This document shows positions 11,203-61,896 of a stretch of 64,000 nt of DNA, piece after piece. The stretch's first letter is position 1. The number at the start of each line of letters is the position of its first letter. A program made the position numbers and the translations under genes. Under the pieces are notes generated by a model. The model saw nothing but the letters and a program-made list of their open reading frames with translations, did not search any database and was not told the origin of the DNA. The DNA comes from Planctomycetota bacterium (GTDB taxonomy: Bacteria > Planctomycetota > DG-23 > JAZDKG01): NCBI GenBank assembly GCA_043803205.1, contig JAZDKG010000192.1, positions 3,038 through 67,037 of the forward strand, given 5' to 3'.

Positions 11203-11739
11203 CTACTTTGCCAACAGGCTTCCCGGATCGGCTTCCGCGCGCGTCGCAAGGATCTTGCCGAAGTACAGCCGGTGATAATCGCCCTTGGGGTACGCCTCCG
11301 CCCGGACCTCCTCCGCGAGTCGCTCCGGGATCACGTCGGTCGAGTGAACGACCTTGCATTCGTAGACGATCGGGCATTCCAGGATTACCGGGGCCGACGC
11401 GTATGAGCCCTTTTCGACTGTGAGCTTGCACGCGAGGACCTTGTCCATGTCGCGCCCGCTCTTCGACCCGCAGACCGCGCACGTCTTCTCCATCCCCTTT
11501 GTCGGCACGTTCACGGAGAAAAAGCCTGTCCGTTCGATGCATCCAAAGGTGTACCGGCTGGGGCGCACAAGCACGACCCACATCGGCAGTCCCCAGACGA
11601 TTCCCAGGACGCCCCATCCGATCGTCATGAAATTGGCTTTCCCCCGGGCGTCGTAACTCCCGAGGAGAAGGCCTCTTGTGCCGAGGGCGTGCATCACGGC
11701 CTCGAAATCCCGACGGAAATCCACCTCTACGTGCGCCAT
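11203..11739 (-). CDS. Flavin reductase family (flavoredoxin-like) protein
   Basis: NFMTIGW, VRPSRYT, FSVNVP, CGSKSGRDMDK, ECPIVYEC, YHRLYFGKI. Confidence 0.9.
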   Translation of the reverse strand: MAHVEVDFRRDFEAVMHALGTRGLLLGSYDARGKANFMTIGWGVLGIVWGLPMWVVLVRPSRYTFGCIERTGFFSVNVPTKGMEKTCAVCGSKSGRDMDKVLACKLTVEKGSYASAPVILECPIVYECKVVHSTDVIPERLAEEVRAEAYPKGDYHRLYFGKILATRAEADPGSLLAK

Positions 11740-11928: not shown

Positions 11929-12630
11929 ATGGTGGTGAAGAAGAGCATCACGCAGTCCATGGCGTCTCAGGCCGTCCCGGGCCGCCTGATCGCCGTCGAG
12001 GGCCTCGACGGCTCCGGCAAGTCCACTCAGGTGTACCTGCTCAAGCGGTGGCTTGAGATCGAGGGGTACAAGGTTTTTTTCACCGAATGGAACTCGTCCG
12101 TCATAGTAAAGAAGGCGACCAAGAAGGGGAAGAAGAGACAGCTCCTGACTCCCACGACGTTCTCTCTCATCCACTGCACCGATTTCGCCGACCGGTACGA
12201 GCGTCAGGTGTTGCCCCTTCTTCGCGCGGGGTACATCGTGCTTGCAGACCGCTACATCTACACCGCGTATGCGCGCGACATCGTGCGCGGGTGCAGGCCT
12301 GATTGGGTGCGCAACCTGTACAGCTACGCCGTAAAACCGCACATCACCTTCTTCTTCGAGGTGCCCCTGGAGACGGCCCTGGGGCGGATCTTAGGCGGTC
12401 GTCCCACGATCAAGTACTTCGAGGCGGGGATGGACCTGGGCCTTTCGAGCGACCCCTACGAGAGCTTCCGTCTCTTTCAGCACCGCATCAATGAGCAGTA
12501 CCATCGCATGATCGACGAGTTCACGTTCACGATCATCGACGCCACCAAGAAGATCGAGGAGCAGCAGGAGGACGTCCGCCAGATCGTCACCCGGGACATC
12601 GATCTGGGCGCCTTCCGCAGGAGACCCTGA
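11929..12630 (+). CDS. Thymidylate-kinase-fold P-loop kinase, copy 1 (atypical Tmk-like)
   Basis: LIAVEGLDGSGKST P-loop, VLADRY motif. Atypical TEWNSS and KYFEAGMDLG segments. Confidence 0.85.
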   Translation: MVVKKSITQSMASQAVPGRLIAVEGLDGSGKSTQVYLLKRWLEIEGYKVFFTEWNSSVIVKKATKKGKKRQLLTPTTFSLIHCTDFADRYERQVLPLLRAGYIVLADRYIYTAYARDIVRGCRPDWVRNLYSYAVKPHITFFFEVPLETALGRILGGRPTIKYFEAGMDLGLSSDPYESFRLFQHRINEQYHRMIDEFTFTIIDATKKIEEQQEDVRQIVTRDIDLGAFRRRP

Positions 12631-12631
12631 C

Positions 12632-13327
12632 GTGTGTCCGACGCGTTTCTATGGCCATGGCCTCCCCGGTGTGGATACAAGCCATCTTCTGGGGAAGCTT
12701 GTCGTCGTGGAGGGTTCCGACGGCAGCGGGCGCTCCACGCAGGTGGCCTTGCTTCGCGATCGGCTCGAGCGGGGGGGACACGCGACCATCGACGTGGGCC
12801 TGAGTCGCAGCACCCTCGTCGCCAACGAGATCGAAAAGGCCAAGCAGGGGAACATCCTGAACCCCGTCACCTTGAGTCTCTTCTACGCGACGGACTTCGC
12901 CGACCAGATCGAGAACCGCATCATCCCCGCGCTGCGGGCCGGCTTTGTGGTTCTTGCGGATCGGTACATCTATACGCTCATGGCACGCGACATCGTGCGG
13001 GGCGCGGATCCGCAGTGGGTCCAAGGCATTTACGACATCGCCCTCGTGCCGGACGTCGTGTTCTACTTGCGTGTCTCCCCCGCGCGGCTAGCCCAGCGAT
13101 GCCTGCAGAAGAGCGCCACGCTCGATTACTGGGAAAGCGGGATGGATATCGGACTCGCGAGAGACCTCTTCCACAACTTCATGAAGTACCAGAAACTCCT
13201 GAACGCGGAGTTCGGGCGGATGGCACGGCAGTACGACTTCCGCGTCATCAACGGCAATCGTTCCATACGAAGTGTGGCGAAGGACCTCCAGGCCGCAGTG
13301 CTGGAGGTGCTCGAAGGGAAACCGTAG
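12632..13327 (+). CDS. Thymidylate-kinase-fold P-loop kinase, copy 2 (P-loop Lys replaced by Arg)
   Basis: LVVVEGSDGSGRST, VLADRY, DYWESGMDIG. Paralogue of the upstream gene with a 1 bp gap. Confidence 0.85.
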   Translation: MCPTRFYGHGLPGVDTSHLLGKLVVVEGSDGSGRSTQVALLRDRLERGGHATIDVGLSRSTLVANEIEKAKQGNILNPVTLSLFYATDFADQIENRIIPALRAGFVVLADRYIYTLMARDIVRGADPQWVQGIYDIALVPDVVFYLRVSPARLAQRCLQKSATLDYWESGMDIGLARDLFHNFMKYQKLLNAEFGRMARQYDFRVINGNRSIRSVAKDLQAAVLEVLEGKP

Positions 13328-13478
13328 GCGAACGTTCCGAAGACGCTCTTTTTCACGTTTTCTCTTCTTGATGTGCGGGGGGTCGTTAGGGCCTCGCGCC
13401 GGAGGAACGCCGGCCCGAGATCGTGTCCCCCTCAGTGTCCCTGTCTCCGGTGCAGGTCGCCCTGCCGGAAGGACGAAC

Positions 13479-14429
13479 ATGGTATCGCCGCGATTGTCTG
13501 CCGCCGCCGCTCTTGCGGACTTTGATCTGGACGTGCAGGGATTGGACCTCCTGCTTGAACGTCTCCAGCATTCATTGCGCGAGCGCTCCAAGCGTCTCGC
13601 CAAGAGATGGAAGACCGTCAGAAGGAACGGCGACCAAGACGCCGTCCACGATCTGCGCGTCGCCTGCCGGCGACTCCTTTCCGTCTTGGATCTCGTCAGG
13701 GCGCTCGATGAAAGGAAGACGTACGGCAAGATGCGCCGGAATCTGAAGTCCATCCTCAAGCACTACAGTCGACTGCGGGATGCGCAGGTGCAATTCGAGA
13801 CCCTCGCGGCCGTCCTGCCGGGCGATGGCCCTCTCGCCAGCGCGTACCGGCGCCTGTTGGACGACCGGATCGAATCCTTGAGGCGCAAGACCGTCGCGTC
13901 CACTCCCGAGCTCGATTTCAAGCTCTGCCGGAAGGCGGCTCGGAAATTCGCGGCGTTCGTCGAGCAACGACGCAGCAATCAGGAACCCACGGGTCGTCCG
14001 CTGAGCGACGCCGCGCAGGCCCTTGTGGCGGGCCTCTTCGCCTCCTTCGACGATAGCCGCCAGCAGAGCCTTCACGATCGGACGACCGCGTCTTTCCATC
14101 AGGCGAGGATCCGCTTCAAGAAGTTCCGCTACGCGGTCGAGGTGCTGCGCCCGATTCTGCCGGGCGTGGACAGAGCCTACATGGAGCGTCTCACCGCGCT
14201 TCAGACGGCCATGGGGGCCGTTCAGGACCTCGCGGTGCTGCGTGAGCATCTCGCCGATTTCGCCGCTTCCCCCAATTCTCCGGGCGGCAGGCGGGAGCTC
14301 GCCCGTCTCGACGAGGCGCTCGGGCGGAAACACGAACGCGCCCTTGGGGCGGTCCAGCGGCTCTCTGCGCCCTGGGAGGGATCCGACTTCGCCGACGCTT
14401 TCGGAGGAACGTCACACGATGGAGAATGA
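13479..14429 (+). CDS. CHAD domain protein (polyphosphate-binding module)
   Basis: AVHDLRVACRRLLS, LRDAQV, FHQARIRFKKFRY, LQTAMGAVQDLAV. Confidence 0.92.
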   Translation: MVSPRLSAAAALADFDLDVQGLDLLLERLQHSLRERSKRLAKRWKTVRRNGDQDAVHDLRVACRRLLSVLDLVRALDERKTYGKMRRNLKSILKHYSRLRDAQVQFETLAAVLPGDGPLASAYRRLLDDRIESLRRKTVASTPELDFKLCRKAARKFAAFVEQRRSNQEPTGRPLSDAAQALVAGLFASFDDSRQQSLHDRTTASFHQARIRFKKFRYAVEVLRPILPGVDRAYMERLTALQTAMGAVQDLAVLREHLADFAASPNSPGGRRELARLDEALGRKHERALGAVQRLSAPWEGSDFADAFGGTSHDGE

Positions 14430-15393
14430 CAGGCCCGTGGTGGGAGTGGACCTTGGCGGGACGAAGATCCTTTCCGCGGTGGTGCGAGCGGACGGCGCCA
14501 TCCTTGCCCGGGCGAAACTCCCGACCGAGGCCTCCGGGGGCCTCGAGCACGTCATCGACCGGATCGCCCAGAGCGTGTTCGACGCCGTCCGGGAGGCTAG
14601 GCTCTCTCCGGCGGATGTCCCCGCGATGGCCGTCGGCTCGCCGGGCCCCCTCGACCCGCACAAGGGGATCATCCTCGAGGCGCCCAACCTCGGTTGGAAG
14701 AACGTGCCTTTAGGCGCGGAGTTGGAGAAGCGCACTGGGATCAAGACCTTCGTGGAAAATGACGTCGACATGGGCACCCTCGGGGAGTTCGTCTTTGGCG
14801 CCGCGAAGGGCGCCGACAGCGTCCTGGGAGTCTTTGTCGGCACCGGGATCGGCGGGGGCATCATCATCCACGGGAAACTACTGCGTGGTGCGGCGGGGGT
14901 CGCCGGCGAGATCGGTCACATCGTCGTCAAGCGCAATGGGGCCGCCTGCAACTGCGGCGGACGCGGCTGCATGGAGGCCTACGCGGGGCGATGGGCCGTT
15001 GCCAGGTACATTCACAAAGCCGTGAGGAAAGGCAGGCGCTCCTCGGTCGCCCGCGTCGTGAAAGGGGACCACGTGAACCTCACCTCGGGCACGCTGCGGT
15101 CCGCCTGGAGGGCCGACGACAAGTTGGTGCGAAAGGCGCTCACGCGCGCCTGCAAGTACCTCGGCGCCGGCATCGGCTCCGTCGTAAACCTCCTCAGCCC
15201 GGAGGTCGTTGTGATCGGAGGCGGGGTGTTCGAGGCCCTCGGCAAGGAACTGCTCCCGATCACGGTGAAGCACATCCGGCGCAACGCGATGGAGGCTTCT
15301 CTGCGCAATGTGCGGATCGTCCTAGCGGCCCTTGGGGACGACGCGAACGTCCTCGGCGCCTCCGTCGCCGCCCGCCAGCGTCTCTGCGAGTGA
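14419..15393 (+). CDS. ROK family sugar kinase (glucokinase-like)
   Basis: GVDLGGT, VENDV, GTGIGGG, AGEIGH, CNCGGRGCME zinc motif. No N-terminal HTH. Confidence 0.92.
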   Translation: MENDRPVVGVDLGGTKILSAVVRADGAILARAKLPTEASGGLEHVIDRIAQSVFDAVREARLSPADVPAMAVGSPGPLDPHKGIILEAPNLGWKNVPLGAELEKRTGIKTFVENDVDMGTLGEFVFGAAKGADSVLGVFVGTGIGGGIIIHGKLLRGAAGVAGEIGHIVVKRNGAACNCGGRGCMEAYAGRWAVARYIHKAVRKGRRSSVARVVKGDHVNLTSGTLRSAWRADDKLVRKALTRACKYLGAGIGSVVNLLSPEVVVIGGGVFEALGKELLPITVKHIRRNAMEASLRNVRIVLAALGDDANVLGASVAARQRLCE

Positions 15394-15399
15394 GCGGGC

Positions 15400-16062
15400 G
15401 TGCTGGGGGCCTCGCGTCCGCCGAAGGAACTGCCGGTGGACCATCGGAACATCACGATCGACCATCCCGATCCCGAGCATCGGATCGCCGAAGCGATCGA
15501 TCTTCTCCTGGAGAGCGACTGGGAACCTCAGCATGCTCTGCAGGTCCGCAAGCTGGCACTGGCGATCTTCGATCAACTCGCGGCGCTTCATGGGATGGAT
15601 ACGCGCGGACGTCTCATCCTTGAGGCCGCCTCCCTCCTCCACGACGTGGGGTTCCCCATCTCCCAGAGGCGGCATCACAAGATCTCCTTTGACATCATCC
15701 GCGGTAAACTCGGAAAGACGTGGCCCCGCGACGAGGCGGTCCTCGTCGCCCTCGTGGCGCGCTATCATCGTAAGGCCGAGCCCAGCGTGGAGCACGCCGG
15801 GTTCGCGGACCTCGACGAGCGCGAACGGTCGCAGGTTGCGAGCCTGAGCGCCATCCTTCGCGTCGCCGACGGCCTCGACAGAACCCATTCGGCCGCGGTC
15901 CGGAACCTTGAGCTTGCGATAGACCCCCGGCGCGTGCTTTTCCGACTGTCGGGGCCCGCGAGTCCGACCGACGAATGGGGAGCCCGGCGGAAAGCTGATC
16001 TCTTCGAGGAGACGTTCGGCCGAAAGGTAGCGTTCGAGTGGGTTTCAGCCTCTACCGGCTGA
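15400..16062 (+). CDS. Stand-alone HD domain protein of the Ppx/GppA C-terminal type
   Basis: HALQVRKLALAIFDQL, LLHDVG..IS..RHHK.S, VARYHRK, ILRVADGLDRTH. No ASKHA phosphatase domain. Start could be 15436. Confidence 0.87.
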   Translation: MLGASRPPKELPVDHRNITIDHPDPEHRIAEAIDLLLESDWEPQHALQVRKLALAIFDQLAALHGMDTRGRLILEAASLLHDVGFPISQRRHHKISFDIIRGKLGKTWPRDEAVLVALVARYHRKAEPSVEHAGFADLDERERSQVASLSAILRVADGLDRTHSAAVRNLELAIDPRRVLFRLSGPASPTDEWGARRKADLFEETFGRKVAFEWVSASTG

Positions 16063-16107: not shown

Positions 16108-16192
16108 TGGTGCGAGAGAGGGGATTTGAACCCCTACGGGATGTCCCACAGGATCCTAAGTCCTGCGCGTCTGCCAATTCCGCCACTCTCGC
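16108..16192 (-). tRNA. tRNA-Leu (anticodon TAG)
   Basis: Reverse complement gives the GCGAGAG...CTCTCGC acceptor stem plus ACCA, D-arm GGCGGAATTGGCAGACGC, anticodon arm CAGGA-CTTAGGA-TCCTG, a long variable arm and the GGTTCAAATCC T-loop. Confidence 0.97.
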
Positions 16193-22107: not shown

Positions 22108-24554
22108 ATGCGACTGGAGAGAGTTCGCAAGCGGGACGGGCGGGTCGTGCCTTTTGACATCAAGAAGATTGGGGATGCGATCTGGAAGGCCGCGCAGGCG
22201 GTGGACGGGGAGGATCGTCAGGTCGCCGAGGAACTCGCTGGCGTGGTGGCTCTCTTTCTCGAGAAGCACTACGAGGGGGAGATCCCGGGGATCGAGGACA
22301 TCCAGGACGTGGTGGAGAAGGTGCTGATCGAGACGGGGCATGCCAAGACGGCCAAGGCATACATCCTGTATCGCGAGAAACGAACCCGCCTGCGCGAGAG
22401 GCTGCGGGTCCGCAAGTGCGTGCGGGAGGAGATGACCACCACGGACTGGTCGCTTCTCGTGGATCCCGGGTCGCGCGACGAGCTTTTTTCCTGGGATAAG
22501 CATCGGATCGCGGACGCGCTGATCCAGGAAGCGGATCTCGACGAGGATGTCGCTGACGACATCGCATCCGCCGTCGAGGCCAAGGTGCTTGAATCGGGCC
22601 TCACCCGCATCTCGACGTCCCTCATCCGGGAGCTGGTGGACAACGAGCTCTTCGAGCGCAGCTACAACCGGACGCTCGCGAAGCAGACGGTGATCGGCAT
22701 GCCGAAGTATGACCTCGACGCCCTCATCCTGTCGAAGAGCCAGGAGAACTCGAACATCACGGCGAACAACCCGGAGGCGATCAATCTCGCCATCGCCGAG
22801 AACACCCTCAAGCAGTACGCCCTCAAGGAGGTCTTCTCGCGGCGGGTGGCGGACGCGCACCTGACGGGGGCGATCCATCTCCACGATCTGGGGTACCCCA
22901 CCCGCGTGTACTGCTCGAGCCACTCCCTGGAGTACCTGAAGAAGTACGGGCTCCTCCTCGGGAACCTCGACACCCAGAGCGCCCCCGCCAAGCACGCCCG
23001 CACCCTCACGGGGCATCTCAATACGTTCCTAGCGAGCATGCAGGCCTATTACGCGGGCGCCCTCGGCGTGGCTACATCAACATCTTCTATGCGCCCTACG
23101 TCGAGCATATGAGCGACGACGAGATGCGCCAGGAAGCCCAGCATCTCATCTTCAGTTGTTCGCAGAGCGCCTTCAGCCGGGGCGGACAGACGCTCTTCCT
23201 GGATTTCAACGTCCACACCGGGGTTCCGTCCTACTTGAGGGAGATCGGGGCGATCGGCCCGGGGGGCAAGCCGACCGGCCGGACGTACGGCTCCTACGTG
23301 CACGCCGCCCAGCGGTTCCTGCGGGCGATGCTCGACGTCTGGCGGGCCGGGGACACGTACGGACACGTTTTCGCGTTCCCGAAGTGCGATTTCCACGTCA
23401 CCCCGGAGACGTTCTGCGATCCGGCCCAGCTCGAGCTTCTGAAGTACGCCTGTCAGATCGCCAGCGAGAACGGGACGCCCTACTTCGTGTTCGATCGCGA
23501 CGAGGTGACTCTGTCGGCCTGCTGCCGTCTGCGCACCACGATCCGCGACAACCATATGATCCAGCATCCCGAGAGCATGCGATTCTGCGGGTTCCAGAAC
23601 GTCTCGATCAACCTCCCCCAGGCCGCCTACCGCGCGGGGAAGGGGAACTTCGATGGGCTCCTTGCGGAGATCGGCAAGGCGATGGACGTCGCCGTTCAGG
23701 CGCATCTGGAGAAGCGCGCGTTCATCAAGAAGCTGATGAGCGGGCCCGCGATGCCTCTCTGGGAGATCGGCAAGCTCGCCAAGGACGGACGTCCCTACGT
23801 GGACCTCGATCAGGCTACGTACATCATCGGGCTGATCGGCCTCAACGAGTGCGTCCAGCATCTGATGGGGAAGGAGTTGCACGAATCGGATGAGGCGTTG
23901 CGGGTCGGGCTGCGGATCATCGCCCACATGTACTTCCGCGCCAAGCAGGAGGGGGAGCGCCTGGGGCTCAAGCTTTCGCTTGAGGAGTCGCCGGCGGAGT
24001 CCGCCGCGCGCAGGCTGGCGAAGATCGACTACCGAAACTACCCGGAGTCGCATGCGCTCCTCAAGGGGGACCTCCAGAACGACGAGTGTTACTATACGAA
24101 CAGCATCCATCTCAGCGCGGGCGCGCCCGTCGACATGGTGACCCGCATCATCAAGCAGGCGAAGTTTCACCCGATGATCGAGTCGGGGGCGATCATCCAC
24201 GCTTTTGTCGGGGAAGAGCGTCCGAGCATGCAGAGCATCCTCGTCCTCGTGAGGAAGACGTATGAGAAGACCCAGGCGGCGCAGCTCACGATCTCGCCGG
24301 AGTTCACGATCTGCAACGCCTGCAAGCACGTGACGCCGAGGCTCGTGGAGACTTGCTCCGAGTGCGAGAGCGCCGATGTCTATGGGGTGACCCGCATCGT
24401 CGGGTACTTCAGCCGCGTGAGCAACTGGAACAAGTCGAAGCTCGGCGAGCTCAAGGATCGTCATCGCGGGTGGTACAGCGTCGAGAAGGTGATGGCGTCG
24501 TGCGCGCCCGAAGAGGATGCGGCCCGCGAGCATGAGGTCGTGGCCCGTCATTGA
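22108..24554 (+). CDS. nrdD: Anaerobic (class III) ribonucleoside-triphosphate reductase, split by a frameshift near 23070
   Basis: Two ATP-cones, GAIHLHDL, SRGGQTLF, ACCRLR, SPAES, YYTNS, zinc CxxC pair, TRIVGYFS glycyl-radical motif. Adding one G at 23070-71 restores LGVGYINIFYAPY. Confidence 0.95.
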
Positions 24555-49075: not shown

Positions 49076-50272
49076 TCAGTCCTGCGCGTAGAGCGGATCG
49101 AAGTAGAGCTCCCACCACAAGGCCTTTTCCGCCGCTGTGGGGGGCCTCCCGATGTTGGCCATCTTGATCTTCGCTTCCGCCTTGAGAAGCGCGGCTGACG
49201 AATCACTGAAAGTCTTCACCGACCCGTCCGTGAAGAGGGCGTTGAAAGCGCGATCGTGGTTCGCGGTGTAATACTTCTCCGTCAGGTGGTCCGCGATGTG
49301 GTGGTCATAGTACACGAAGGTGGAGGGGCGAGTGGCGCCGGTTCCGTCGGTCCCGCCGTCTCCGTACCGGTGGTAAAACCCCCACATGGCGTCGGAAGCC
49401 ACGGCGCGGCCTTGGATCGTGTCGAGGGGATAGGACTGCCAGCTCGACCCGGTTCCCGTCTGCGGACGCGTCATATAGGCGCCGATGACCCAGCAAGCGT
49501 TGCCGCTCTTTGACTCGGCGCAGTTGCCGCTGTTATAGGTCGATCCCCCAGAGCTGTTCTCCCAGGAGTTCCAGTCGATCACATCGGTCCCCGAGTCATT
49601 CACCGTCGCGCTCATGTACGCGCTGCCGGTGGCGCGCCAGTAGACCTTCCCTCCGGTGGTGAAGAAGACAGCGTCTGGAAGATACCTCGCCTGATCGTTC
49701 CAGACTGTCTGGCTGTCCGCATATCCGGAGCGCTGCGGAGGATAGTGGGGCTCGACATCCACGAGCTTCCTGCTCGGACAGTCGAGCACGGCAGCCCCTT
49801 TCTGGGTCAGATAACCGCCCGAGAATAGCAGTCCCAGTCCGCTCGGGATTCCCGCCCCCGGATTCTTCGAGGAGGTGTTTGGAAACACGAGGGTAGCCCC
49901 CGCGTCGGTAAAGAGTTCCGGGTCGTCGTGCCAATCCCCCGTGAAAGGCCAGCCATCATCCCCAAAGCGGGGGGTCAGGTACCATTGGGTGGATTCGCTG
50001 TTCATTCCTCTGCGGTTGTCGAGCGTCGTCACGTGCCGAATCAAGTTTGTCGCGTCCCAGGACAATCCGTATACCGCCGGCGTATAGCCCTTGTTGTCCG
50101 TCGTGTACATCTGCAAGGCGAGGCCGATCTGCCGCAAGTTGCTTCTGCACTGGGTTTTGCGCGCTTCCTCCCGCGCTCGCCCGAGCGCCGGAAGGAGCAG
50201 TCCCACCAGGAGGGCGATGATCACCATCACCACGAGAAGCTCGATCAGGGTGAACCCTTTCTTGGGGCCCAT
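49076..50272 (-). CDS. DUF1559-type prepilin-like N-methylation domain protein
   Basis: [33 protein letters not shown]...[12 protein letters not shown]-terminal NH...NALFTDGSV motif. Confidence 0.88.
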
Positions 50273-59360: not shown

Positions 59361-60536
59361 TTGGGGTCGCGGATCTATGACGTAGCCGAAGCTGCGGGCG
59401 TGTCCATCGCGACCGTCAGCCGGGTCTTGTCGCAGTCTCGTCGTGTCAAGCCCGGCAACGTCGCACGCGTCCGCGAAGCGGCCAAGCGACTCGGGTACTA
59501 TCCCCACGGCCCCGCGCGCGCCCTCGTCAGTGGCCGACGCGAAACGATCGGGATCTGCTGGGGCGCCGGTGTTTCCATTCCCGATGAATGCGCCCGCGCG
59601 GTCATGGACGGCGTCGCGGTCCACCTGAGCGAGCACAACATCTCCAACCTCATGGTCTTCACCCCAACCTCCCCCGGCGCCGTTCCCAAGATGCTCGCCG
59701 AGAGACACATCGACGGTCTCATCCTCGCCACGCATTGGAACGATACCTTCTTCTCCTTGGCAGGCGAACTCGGAATCCCCGTCGTCCTCGCCGGGGAGAG
59801 TTCCCCGAAAGTGAGCTGCGTCTACGTGGACGACCGCAAGGTCGCTCGGGAGGCGACCTCCTTCCTCCTCGAGCTCGGACACCGCTCGATCGCTTACGTC
59901 GGCACCCCCTGCGAGAACCCTCACTCCTCCGTCCCCAGCCGCTTCGAAGGTTATCTTGACGCCCTGCGCCTGGCGGGCCTCGTCCCCTCGTCCTTGTGTT
60001 CCATGCGGGTTCCGGCGGACGCTTCACGGTCCGCGGATGAGTCCGACTTGGCGGAGCTGCGCTTCGGGTGCTGCTTAGCAGCCCTCGACACGCGCCTGCG
60101 CGCCCTTCTCGACGCTCCCGAGCCGCCCACCGCTTTTCTCTGCTTTGATGATTCGGTGGCGGCGTGGGTGATCCAGGTCCTTCGTCGGATGGAGCTGCGC
60201 GTTCCCGAGGACGCGAGTGTCATGGGCTTTAACGACGCCCCCCACTCCCACATGCTCCCCGCGCCCCTCACGACCATGGAGATCCCCTTCCGTGAGATGG
60301 GCGTCCGCGCCGTCGATCTCCTCATGGGAGCGATCGAGGATCCGGATGCGCCCCGTTCCGAGTGCGTCCTCTCCGCCACCCTCAAGGTTCGGCAGTCTAC
60401 GACGCCCTTCGAAGGCGCCCGGTCCGGCAGATCCGGGCCCGCCGCCTGTGCCGGGTACGCGGGATTGCCGTTTCCCAGTCCTCTTCCTATCTCTCTTCTT
60501 CGGAGCCCCTCGAAAGGAGGTGATGCCCTGCGCTGA
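59361..60536 (+). CDS. LacI family transcriptional regulator
   Basis: [26 protein letters not shown]...[26 protein letters not shown]. Confidence 0.93.
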
Positions 60537-60588
60537 CGACGTGAGTGCGCAATTCTCGTGTCCGGTTTCCCAGACAAGGAGGAACACA

Positions 60589-61896
60589 ATGCGTATGCGG
60601 AAAGGTTTCACCCTTATTGAGCTTCTGGTGGTGATGGTAATCATCGCCCTGCTCGTGGGACTGCTCCTGCCCGCCCTCGGGCGCGCCCGCGAGGAAGCCC
60701 GGAAGACCCAGTGCAGGAGCAACCTGAGACAGATCGGCCTCGCCATCAACATGTACTGCAACGACAACAAGAGCTGGACCCCCGCCGCCTATGGCTGGCG
60801 GATGCTCACCGACACCGGCCTATACATGGTCGATGCGGCCTCAGGGAGCGAGATCGATCGCTTCTCCGTCCAGTTCTACCTCTGGCCCAAGGGCGACTGG
60901 TCCTACAGCGACACCCCCCCGCCGGGAAGGGCCAATTGGGAAGGCAGACACACCCCCCTTGTCCCCTGGTTTGACTGGCGATGGGACGAGATCGGCCCAC
61001 GTTTCACCGCTAAGGGCGGCGGCGGCGCCTGGCCGTCGGGACTCGCGCTTCTCTTCTCGGGCGGCTATCTCACCCAGAAGGGCGGCGCAGTACTGAACTG
61101 CCCCTCCCGATTCGAGCCGGAACAGACCGAGCAGGGGTTCTTCCTCCAGACCATACCCGCCTTCACAAGGGACCAGGCCGACTACTACAACATCCGTATG
61201 AACCAGTCCATCCGCGCCGACATTGACGAGCCCTTCTGGACCTCGGGCGGAAAGGCCGCCTGGACCGACGGCGACCGAATTGGACAGGCGGGCCTGGGGA
61301 TCATCCTCGGGAGCGAAGGTCCGACCCCGAAATGCTACGACATGGGCCGGTGGTTTTTCGGGGAGCAGAGCCGCGCCTACAGCGCCGGCACGGGCGGTAG
61401 AATGGGCGTCTACAATTACAGGTTCGCCGATGTCCTCCCGCTCCCAGCGCCCAGGTGCGATGGAACCGGCGATTCGTACACGTGGAACAGCGGCTACTGC
61501 AACTACATCGGGAGCTACATGGTCCGCCCGGGCGACTCCGGATACAACTGGAACAGCCACAAGCTCGACCGCATCCAGGGCAAGGCCATCGCCTCCGACG
61601 CCATCTGGGGCTGGATCTTCCGCTCGAACATCATGAATCGGGTGAGCAATCCCGTTAACCAGGTAGCGTTTAACCCCAACGTGCGGGAGCTCCTCTACGA
61701 GAGCTTCGTCCGCAACCACGACGCCGCCTACAACGTCCTCTTCACCGACGGCTCGGTGAAGACTTACAGCGACGCGGGGATGAACCTCTACAAGTCCTAC
61801 CTCAGCGAGCAGATCGGGCAGGGTACCGAGCCGAGCTTGACCCGCATCGCCAAGCTCTATCGGCTGTACTTCGACGAGCTCTACGCACAAGACTAG
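60589..61896 (+). CDS. DUF1559-type prepilin-like N-methylation domain protein
   Basis: [48 protein letters not shown]; [25 protein letters not shown]. Confidence 0.9.

Follow-up and report, generated by a model that had tools for sequence, protein, structure and literature searches.

A heteromeric polyphosphate kinase, PPK3, has been described from the archaeon Sulfolobus acidocaldarius, in which Saci_2019 is the catalytic subunit (cPPK3) and Saci_2020, a regulatory subunit (rPPK3), is inactive (Hofmann et al., J Biol Chem 2026; PMC12995831; a preprint of the work, 10.1101/2024.08.28.610084, is dated 2024). The activity of the S. acidocaldarius enzyme (SaPPK3) peaks at a 1:1 ratio of the two subunits, which form an alpha2-beta2 tetramer, and without rPPK3 the activity of cPPK3 is 10-fold lower than that of the holoenzyme. 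The reaction, though reversible, strongly favours the formation of ATP from polyphosphate (polyP) and ADP, synthesis of polyP being obtained only at a high ATP/ADP ratio with an ATP-recycling system (PMC12995831). Here we analyse a five-gene cluster, at positions 11929-16062 of a 64,000-nucleotide stretch of DNA (the window) from the Planctomycetota bacterium assembly GCA_043803205.1, which begins with two adjacent kinase genes of the thymidylate kinase (Tmk) fold, and we propose that it is, in all likelihood, a bacterial PPK3-type polyphosphate operon.

Several features of the published system bear on this comparison. The Sulfolobus PPK3 operon contains SixA, PPX and CHAD; cPPK3 has a basic cleft, which rPPK3 does not; the arginine of the DRX motif is replaced in rPPK3s; and the residues that bind dTMP are not conserved in PPK3s (PMC12995831). 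Most members of the PPK3 clade are bacterial Tmk paralogues, and the genomes that encode them carry a canonical tmk at another site and for the most part have neither PPK1 nor PPK2; counts of PPK1, PPK2 and PPK3 per genome are given in Data S1 of that paper, the abstract of which calls the family rare in bacteria (PMC12995831). STK_15430 of Sulfurisphaera tokodaii, present in the Protein Data Bank (PDB) as a "probable thymidylate kinase" (2plr and 5h70), is a cPPK3 homologue (PMC12995831). The same authors draw an analogy with the class II PPK2 enzymes (P. aeruginosa PA3455), which combine an inactive and an active module, and point out that the ADP and polyP sites are switched in PPK2 relative to PPK3 (PMC12995831).

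The cluster and its bounds, as defined by the positions of the open reading frames (ORFs) and by Pfam matches, are as follows.

11203-11739, - strand: flavin-reductase-like gene, divergent, the upstream bound of the operon (PF01613, 58.1 bits; 189 bp from kinase A)
11929-12630, + strand: kinase A, cPPK3-like and predicted to be the catalytic subunit (233 aa; PF02223, 81.9 bits)
12632-13327, + strand: kinase B, rPPK3-like partner, presumably regulatory (231 aa; PF02223, 67.3 bits)
13479-14429, + strand, in an ORF open from 13272: CHAD-domain protein (PF05235, 119.9 bits)
14419-15393, + strand: ROK glucokinase-like sugar kinase of a lineage associated with polyP loci (PF00480, 224.3 bits)
15400-16062, + strand: stand-alone C-terminal half of PPX (domains 3+4, HD-type), here called the HD protein (220 aa; PF21447 Ppx-GppA_III, 60.2 bits; PF01966 HD, 27.6 bits)
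16108-16192, - strand: tRNA-Leu, convergent, the downstream bound of the operon (Rfam RF00005, 59.4 bits; ARAGORN tRNA-Leu)

This layout agrees with a first-pass annotation made from the DNA alone, which had listed five co-oriented genes, two paralogous kinases 1 bp apart, a CHAD gene overlapping the ROK gene, and an HD gene 6 bp further on. All five genes are on the + strand. Kinase B starts 1 bp past the stop codon of kinase A, and the two proteins are 41% identical over 203 residues. The CHAD match lies far above its gathering cut-off of 25.6 bits; the likely start of this gene is the ATG at 13479, preceded in the DNA by GGAAGGA, which resembles a ribosome-binding site, so that the gene probably begins about 150 nt past kinase B, without overlapping it. 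The ROK gene starts with the ATG at 14419, behind GGAGGA, and overlaps the stop codon of CHAD (TGA, 14427-14429) by 11 nt, and the HD gene begins 6 bp past the ROK stop codon.

When compared with all PDB sequences, kinase A found its best match in the S. tokodaii cPPK3 homologue (2plr/5h70; 214.6 bits, E = 1.2e-62), whereas the best canonical Tmk scored only 61.9 bits. Likewise, kinase B scored 146.4 bits against 2plr and 44.3 bits against the next best chain. The Walker-A (GSGKST) and DRY motifs of kinase A are intact, with K31, D107 and R108 invariant in 61/61 aligned kinase A sequences, and both GK and DR are kept in the A subunit of 80/80 metagenome loci. Residues 57-72 of A carry a mean net charge of +5.3, as against -1.5 for the equivalent segment of B, and at ten positions K or R is found in at least 90% of A and in at most 20% of B sequences. 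This A-only basic patch, which we delimited by segment charge and K/R columns and not by the exact cleft residues of the paper (Fig. S16), mirrors the basic cleft that distinguishes cPPK3 from rPPK3 (PMC12995831). In a phylogenetic tree, six canonical Tmks fell outside the PPK3 clade (support by the Shimodaira-Hasegawa-like approximate likelihood ratio test, SH-aLRT, 92), with kinase A inside it, and the 34 bacterial A rows formed one clade (SH-aLRT 92). On the strength of these sequence comparisons, we consider it highly probable that the kinase pair is a PPK3-type polyphosphate kinase. The first-pass annotation had taken the pair for a probably heteromeric polyP kinase or polyP:nucleotide phosphotransferase and not a dTMP kinase, a view that matches the experiments on the homologous Saci_2019 and Saci_2020. 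It had also thought the family uncharacterised; PPK3 is already in print (PMC12995831), and the window holds, by similarity, a bacterial copy of it. The resemblance to PPK2 that it had drawn turns out to be the likeness of a thymidylate-kinase-derived PPK3, and neither A nor B matched PF03976 (PPK2) at E <=0.01 in a Pfam search.

The genome around the cluster bears on what the pair may do. The assembly (4.41 Mb in 296 contigs, 96.43% complete, 4.16% contamination) carries a separate canonical tmk on contig C54, adjoining holB (PF02223, 128.5 bits; TIGR00041, 138.3 bits), and the pair is thus not the only tmk of this organism. The absence of ppk1, ppk2 and the Ppx catalytic domain, reported at first for the window, holds there; neither PPK1 (PF02503) nor the Ppx-GppA catalytic domain (PF02541) was found in the 4.41-Mb assembly, and the sole PPK2, on contig C249, is a two-domain polyP:AMP phosphotransferase (TIGR03708, 691.4 bits vs a cut-off of 547.65). 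That PPK1 was not found, together with the kind of PPK2 present, makes PPK3 a candidate for both polyP synthesis and ATP regeneration. Five other PPK3 genomes that we tested all have a third, canonical Tmk (5/5) and none has PPK1 (0/5); a Ppx-GppA domain is present in 2/5, in both beside PPK3, and PPK2 in 3/5. The suspected anti-correlation with ppk1 was borne out in a sample of 301 genomes from the phylum of the window: with the A subunit scored at E <=1e-60 (14 genomes), and PPK1 detected in 173 genomes, PPK1 occurred in 2/14 PPK3 genomes (G150 and G275) vs 171/287 without PPK3 (Fisher p = 0.0013, a value that ignores kinship among the genomes and hence overstates the effect). Of 31 genomes, namely this one and its 30 nearest relatives, 5 carry PPK3, 9 PPK1, none both and 17 neither.

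It is conceivable that, in vivo, the pair is only a polyP-dependent ADP kinase, acting as an energy buffer, and that polyP is made by another enzyme, one not yet recognised, or by a PPK1 that the assembly does not contain. This would suit the bias of SaPPK3 towards ATP formation, with polyP appearing only at high ATP/ADP with recycling (PMC12995831), the completeness and fragmentation of the assembly, and the two PPK3 genomes of the phylum sample in which PPK1 is present. Yet PPK1 was found neither in this genome nor in any of the five others, and the only PPK2 is of the AMP-phosphotransferase type. Moreover, the anti-correlation with PPK1 and the ROK/PPX neighbourhood that the two enzymes share (see below) fit a replacement of PPK1 by PPK3, which has been proposed on other grounds (PMC12995831). 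We regard a pure energy buffer as unlikely, if still a reading to be taken seriously.

Kinase B differs from A in its P-loop. It has Arg at the position of the Walker-A Lys (GSGRST) and keeps the DRY motif (LADRY). Arg occupies this position in 60/60 B homologues from genome loci and in 66/66 partners found at the 80 more divergent metagenome loci, and DR is kept in 74/74 B sequences from genome loci and in 65/66 metagenome partners. The sole exception, L105_B, has DGY in addition to the Walker-A Arg, and it partners the most Sulfolobaceae-like A that we found, which is 57% identical to P0276; P0276 itself scores 307.5 bits against 2plr. All 35 B rows of the tree, L105_B included, formed one clade (SH-aLRT 91). 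The published rPPK3 feature, replacement of the DRX Arg, is thus absent from kinase B and from nearly all bacterial partners. Our reading of these alignments is that kinase B is the probable orthologue of rPPK3, that the Walker-A Lys-to-Arg change may be the family-wide mark of the regulatory subunit, and that loss of the DRX Arg appears to be a later feature of the Sulfolobales-like lineage. B is also marked by a conserved stretch at its N-terminus, ahead of the P-loop strand (consensus xFYGxGxPGV; window 12632-12700), in which F6 and P12 are invariant, and Y7 and G8 nearly so, and which the A subunits are without.

We deduce that kinase B is inactive from the Walker-A K-to-R change alone, and B might instead be a second active kinase, with another substrate, or a nucleotide-sensing enzyme, in a complex with two kinds of active site. 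The nearly universal DRY motif would be consistent with an active B, as would the strong conservation of the protein (mean column identity 68% in the B homologue alignment) and its B-specific conserved basic residues, R59 and K160. The Walker-A Lys, however, is replaced by Arg without exception, and in P-loop enzymes this substitution usually abolishes phosphoryl transfer and not nucleotide binding. In addition, B is without the basic patch of A, and archaeal rPPK3 alone is inactive (PMC12995831). An active B therefore seems improbable to us, and a non-catalytic, presumably regulatory partner is the reading that we retain.

A third kind of PPK3-family protein, represented by P0198, P0237 and P0291, keeps the Walker-A GK, has NK in place of DR, and is sister to the B clade. 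P0198 and P0237 were considered as archaeal rPPK3 and dropped, as those of their relatives that have names belong to bacterial groups (Margulisiibacteriota, Acidobacteriota and Vicinamibacterales). A structure prediction of a complex of A, B and the HD protein, for which no controls were folded, scored 0.00 in both runs and is silent on binding either way.

To describe the gene neighbourhood of the pair, we used 81 loci (80 genome loci and the window), with custom hidden Markov models built from the window proteins and from Pfam-named clusters. B follows A in 78/81 loci. A Ppx-GppA N-domain is found in 48/81 and an HD/PPX domain III in 39/81 (34 attached to PPX, 6 stand-alone); ROK, co-directional and within 4.5 kb downstream of B, in 28/81, or 26/66 when only loci with at least 3 kb of downstream sequence are counted; CHAD in 24/81; a SixA-like gene in 16/81; PPK2 in 8/81; and PhoU, within 4.5 kb and on the same strand, at 2 loci. 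Linkage to polyP genes recurs (PPX, CHAD, SixA, PPK2 and PhoU), and ROK and HD emerge as recurrent partners of PPK3. Directly after B, 41/81 loci have a conserved ORF of about 110-130 aa (e.g., L035:9334-9675 + and L007:9420-9764 +), which is absent from the window. The two clusters of this small ORF, c6 and c7, belong to a single family (hhalign probability 99.1%); the idea that they are CHAD fragments was discarded (1.4% and 0.3%), and they had no match in Pfam or the ESM Atlas.

Natural fusions, drawn from a library of representatives at 50% identity, join the same parts. Two proteins have two Tmk domains (P0121 and P0251), with the GK P-loop present only in the first half of P0121; three have two Tmk domains and HD (P0132, P0135 and P0148); one has a single Tmk domain and HD (P0270); and HD-Tmk (P0195) and NUDIX-Tmk (P0242, P0253 and P0262) fusions also occur. 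The two-Tmk and Tmk-HD fusions lend Rosetta-stone support to an association of A with B and to the HD half working with the kinase, although the two-Tmk proteins bear only indirectly on physical A-B association. The main text of PMC12995831 mentions no natural PPK3 fusions beyond one possible fused operon.

Other fusions of a cPPK3-like domain are longer. In six proteins (P0163, P0175, P0187, P0197, P0209 and P0219) the domain, with GK and DRY/W intact, is 47-51% identical to A. P0163 combines it with SPX and an APH/DUF2252 kinase-like domain, and the other five (about 1030-1280 aa) with an MFS transporter and APH/DUF2252. Because SPX is a eukaryotic phosphate-sensing domain, the SPX- and MFS-fused proteins may be eukaryotic PPK3-like enzymes; the term SPX was not found in the main text of PMC12995831. 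Three further proteins, P0194 (2575 aa), P0222 and P0256, carry the domain fused to an InPase pyrophosphatase domain (PF18823), with ART-PolyVal also present in P0194, a make-up that is that of the polyvalent proteins of mobile elements.

The HD protein aligned to residues 359-523 of the 535-aa PPX of Deinococcus radiodurans (8jgo) with 83.8 bits. In the numbering of PMC11234463, this stretch makes up domains 3+4, which form the C-terminal half and are not catalytic. The catalytic domain PF02541 was not found in the HD protein, which matched only PF21447 and PF01966. The residues H..HD..HHK..YHRK..D are conserved in both the stand-alone and the PPX-attached forms; in the HD domains of the fusion proteins the H, HD and D positions are kept, and HHK and YHRK are variable. 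A ROK gene directly followed by a stand-alone HD gene, with no Ppx-GppA domain, is found in the window and at four other loci (L007, L014, L027 and L035), of which L007, labelled Planctomycetota, is the closest relative. The mirror image also exists: at ROK-bearing loci labelled Verrucomicrobiota, ROK is followed by a Ppx-GppA N-domain without detectable domain III/HD (L046, L054, L064-L066, L068, L071, L072, L078, L081, L082 and L085, with L065 labelled Bacteroidota).

The ROK protein resembles ATP glucokinases. Its best PDB matches were 2qm1 (178.9 bits), 3vgk (168.6) and 3vov (144.9), and its score against the polyP/ATP glucomannokinase 1woq was 52.3 bits; it scored 218 with TIGR00744, under the cut-off of 260.35, and 39 with NF045942 (polyphosphate glucokinase), under the cut-off of 250. 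The cysteine cluster CNCGGRGC can be read in its sequence. A second glucokinase-like ROK is encoded on contig C213 of the same genome. In a first tree, all 27 PPK3-linked ROKs formed an exclusive clade (SH-aLRT 99), a result that was narrowed once 17 more ROKs of relatives were added. With these included, clade II (36 rows, SH-aLRT 93) comprises all 29 PPK3-linked ROKs, that of the window among them, 3 that lie beside PPX-PPK1 and 4 unlinked ones, and clade I (9 rows, SH-aLRT 90) comprises unlinked paralogues, including the second copies of the window genome and of G004. The ROK-PPX-PPK1 clusters belong to relatives without PPK3 (G014:C12:12741-16325, L202; G022:C13:10787-14385, L203; G003:C19:3276-8097, L201), with ROK co-directional in G014 and G022 and divergent in G003. 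Within the window's class, the ROK linked to PPK1 in G003 falls together with those linked to PPK3 in G004 and G009 (SH-aLRT 100), the pattern to be expected if PPK1 and PPK3 had been exchanged in situ while the adjacent ROK gene stayed in place. The main text of PMC12995831 does not mention "glucokinase", "HD domain" or a ROK kinase, and uses "Walker" only for Walker B, although its supplement may list ROK and HD neighbours or the Walker-A change. A literature search found no publication linking a ROK kinase or glucokinase to a polyphosphate kinase and CHAD, which is not proof that the link is unpublished.

ROK and the Ppx-GppA catalytic domain both belong to the ASKHA (actin-fold) superfamily. 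Since an ASKHA domain together with PPX domains 3+4 is the architecture of PPX, the ROK protein and the stand-alone C-terminal half could, between them, form a polyP-consuming enzyme that acts as a polyP-dependent glucokinase or in place of an exopolyphosphatase. Such an enzyme would suit the five loci at which ROK directly precedes a stand-alone HD, none showing a Ppx-GppA domain, the lack of any detected Ppx-GppA domain in this genome and in G031, the ties of the ROK lineage to polyP loci of both kinds, PPK3 and PPK1, and the conserved metal-ligand residues of HD. It fits poorly with the scores just given, which place ROK nearest to the ATP glucokinases and far from the polyP enzymes, and with the 12 loci at which ROK lies beside a normal Ppx-GppA domain; nor was a ROK-HD fusion seen. 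We give this possibility little credence and continue to read the two proteins as accessories of a PPK3-type kinase.

That A and B are ordinary, redundant or specialised dTMP or nucleotide kinases in a coincidental polyP neighbourhood is very unlikely indeed: both match PF02223, A passes the TIGR00041 cut-off, the homologues are named dTMP kinase in databases (all 8000 scored candidates related to kinase A had E <=1e-10, the best 120 being 60-80% identical to it, and every named one bears that name), and the S. tokodaii homologue had initially been described as a thymidylate kinase, if an unusual one (10.1101/2024.08.28.610084), but the genome has its canonical tmk beside holB, the pair lies much nearer to cPPK3 than to any Tmk, the linkage to PPX, CHAD, SixA, PPK2 and PhoU recurs across the 81 loci, members of the family are fused to PPX C-terminal, NUDIX, SPX and pyrophosphatase domains, and it was Saci_2019 that had PPK activity, Saci_0893 being the dTMP kinase of S. 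acidocaldarius (PMC12995831).

Several points nonetheless weigh against a PPK3-type operon. PPK3 activity is known from the archaeal enzyme, and the proteins of the window are known from their sequences alone; given the bias of SaPPK3 towards ATP formation, net synthesis of polyP in vivo is uncertain. Kinase A lies above the equivalog cut-off for dTMP kinase (TIGR00041, 90.2 vs 83.25 bits; B, at 76.4, lies below it) and may have retained some dTMP kinase activity. Kinase B keeps DRY, whereas the inactivity of rPPK3 is ascribed to the lost DRX Arg (PMC12995831). In our trees, which were quick searches with SH-aLRT support only, archaeal PPK3 is represented by P0276 and the metagenome locus L105 and not by Saci_2019 and Saci_2020 themselves; the archaeal-like cPPK3 branches outside the bacterial A clade, and L105_B sits on a long branch. 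In an assembly of 296 contigs with 4.16% contamination, the absence of PPK1 and PPX means "not found" and is not proven. Finally, the ROK protein is similar to ordinary ATP glucokinases, and clade II includes 4 ROKs, out of 36, that do not lie beside polyP genes.

Our evidence comes from homology and motifs, from gene order and co-occurrence, and from natural fusions; activity, reversibility and heteromer formation were established with the archaeal enzyme only. From these we infer what the proteins encoded in the window do, including B as a regulator and HD and ROK as its companions in the operon. A PPK3-type operon would work as follows. Kinase A would catalyse the reversible transfer of phosphate between ATP/ADP and the end of a polyP chain. 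B, without the Walker-A Lys, would most likely be non-catalytic, assembling with A and activating it in a heteromer (alpha2-beta2 in Sulfolobus), and possibly sensing nucleotide through its Arg-substituted P-loop. At high ATP/ADP, PPK3 would extend polyP; at low energy charge, it would form ATP from polyP and ADP, and the PAP-type PPK2 and PPK3, acting in succession, could convert AMP to ADP and then to ATP at the expense of polyP. The CHAD protein would bind or mark the polyP granule, and the PPX C-terminal half would assist the kinase in handling polyP. The ROK glucokinase, co-transcribed with these genes, would spend the regenerated ATP on the conversion of glucose to glucose-6-phosphate, so that stored polyP primes glycolysis. 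A scaffold role for CHAD and HD, and a ROK kinase feeding sugar phosphorylation, had already been suggested in the first-pass annotation; we hold each accessory role with much lower confidence than the identity of PPK3.

A closer integration of these parts can be imagined. ROK and the PPX C-terminal half, with its intact HD metal site, might be working parts of the PPK3 machine, with HD docking on A-B, as modelled on the natural A-B-HD fusion proteins, and holding or feeding the polyP chain, and with ROK drawing the phosphate of polyP either directly or by way of channelled ATP. We think this doubtful. If true, genomes from which PPK1 and the PPX catalytic domain have both been lost would have a new polyP-driven glucose-phosphorylating complex.

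PPK3 pairs such as this one are spread over many bacterial phyla. A scan of one genome per GTDB species returned 601 matched stretches, of which at least 505 were confirmed, and its best 80 loci are 65-77% identical to kinase A. A metagenome scan with alignment A1 gave 531 stretches; one with P0276 alone found no relative. Among the 81 loci, 22 are labelled Verrucomicrobiota and 11 Thermodesulfobacteriota, and further labels include Acidobacteriota, Planctomycetota, Sumerlaeota, Latescibacterota, Omnitrophota and others. By their record labels, the loci L045 (Geobacter argillaceus) and L048 (Geomobilimonas luticola) come from cultured carriers of PPK3. At three loci, L086, L023 and L065, from bins labelled Bifidobacterium or Chitinophaga pinensis, PPK3 or ROK is nearly identical to that of Verrucomicrobiota bins (the ROKs of L086 and L074 have end branches of 0 and 0.006), and these bin labels are probably wrong.

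Elsewhere in the window, two genes are split over adjacent ORFs that jointly match one Pfam profile each, the anaerobic ribonucleotide reductase NrdD (22108-23109 and 23109-24551) and a DegT-family aminotransferase (558-1142 and 1112-1651); these are frameshifts, either real or assembly errors. Proteins with an N-terminal methylation motif and DUF1559 are encoded at 49076-50269 (- strand) and 60217-61893 (+ strand), a combination typical of Planctomycetota and their relatives, in keeping with the Planctomycetota label of the closest PPK3 locus.

For the window itself, the outcome is mostly a correct re-annotation; the breadth of the PPK3 family in bacteria deserves specialist attention, as do the leads given below. 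Surveys of polyP metabolism that score only ppk1 and ppk2, as in phosphorus removal or soil P cycling, would miss the organisms that have PPK3. The leads for bacterial PPK3 are the universal Lys-to-Arg change of the partner, the PPX C-terminal half, fused or free, and the glucokinase lineage kept beside PPK1 or PPK3.

How, then, does the locus compare with known systems? Like the PPX of D. radiodurans (8jgo), the HD protein matches domains 3+4; unlike it, it is without the catalytic domains 1 and 2 and has a true HD dyad (LLHDVG), where the D. radiodurans protein has HE in the alignment. The ROK protein has the full-length domain and the CNCGGRGC cluster of the ROK glucokinases (2qm1, 3vgk and 3vov), but in contrast to the TIGR00744 glucokinases it is below the cut-off and belongs to a lineage of polyP loci, and by score it is far from the polyP glucokinases (1woq and NF045942). 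With the two-domain class II PPK2 enzymes, the kinase pair would share the use of one inactive and one active P-loop module on polyP; those enzymes, however, are a different family (no PF03976 match at the threshold given above), with the modules fused in one chain. Canonical dTMP kinases have the same fold, and A has their motifs, at 90.2 bits against the 83.25 cut-off, but A and B lie outside the canonical clade, and the real tmk of the genome, beside holB, scores 138.3 bits. From SaPPK3 the cluster differs in that its host is a bacterium, the genome of which also has a PAP-type PPK2; in that kinase B retains the DRX Arg, its visible lesion being the Walker-A Lys-to-Arg change; and in that the operon, without full PPX and SixA, has ROK and only the C-terminal half of PPX. 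Other features are shared. Like SaPPK3 and STK_15430, the window has two Tmk paralogues side by side, and the canonical tmk of the genome is a third gene at another site; like SaPPK3, its A subunit keeps the P-loop Lys, the DRX Arg and the basic patch, a set of three that B does not have together; and, again as in the archaeal system, CHAD is part of the operon and PPK1 appears to be absent.

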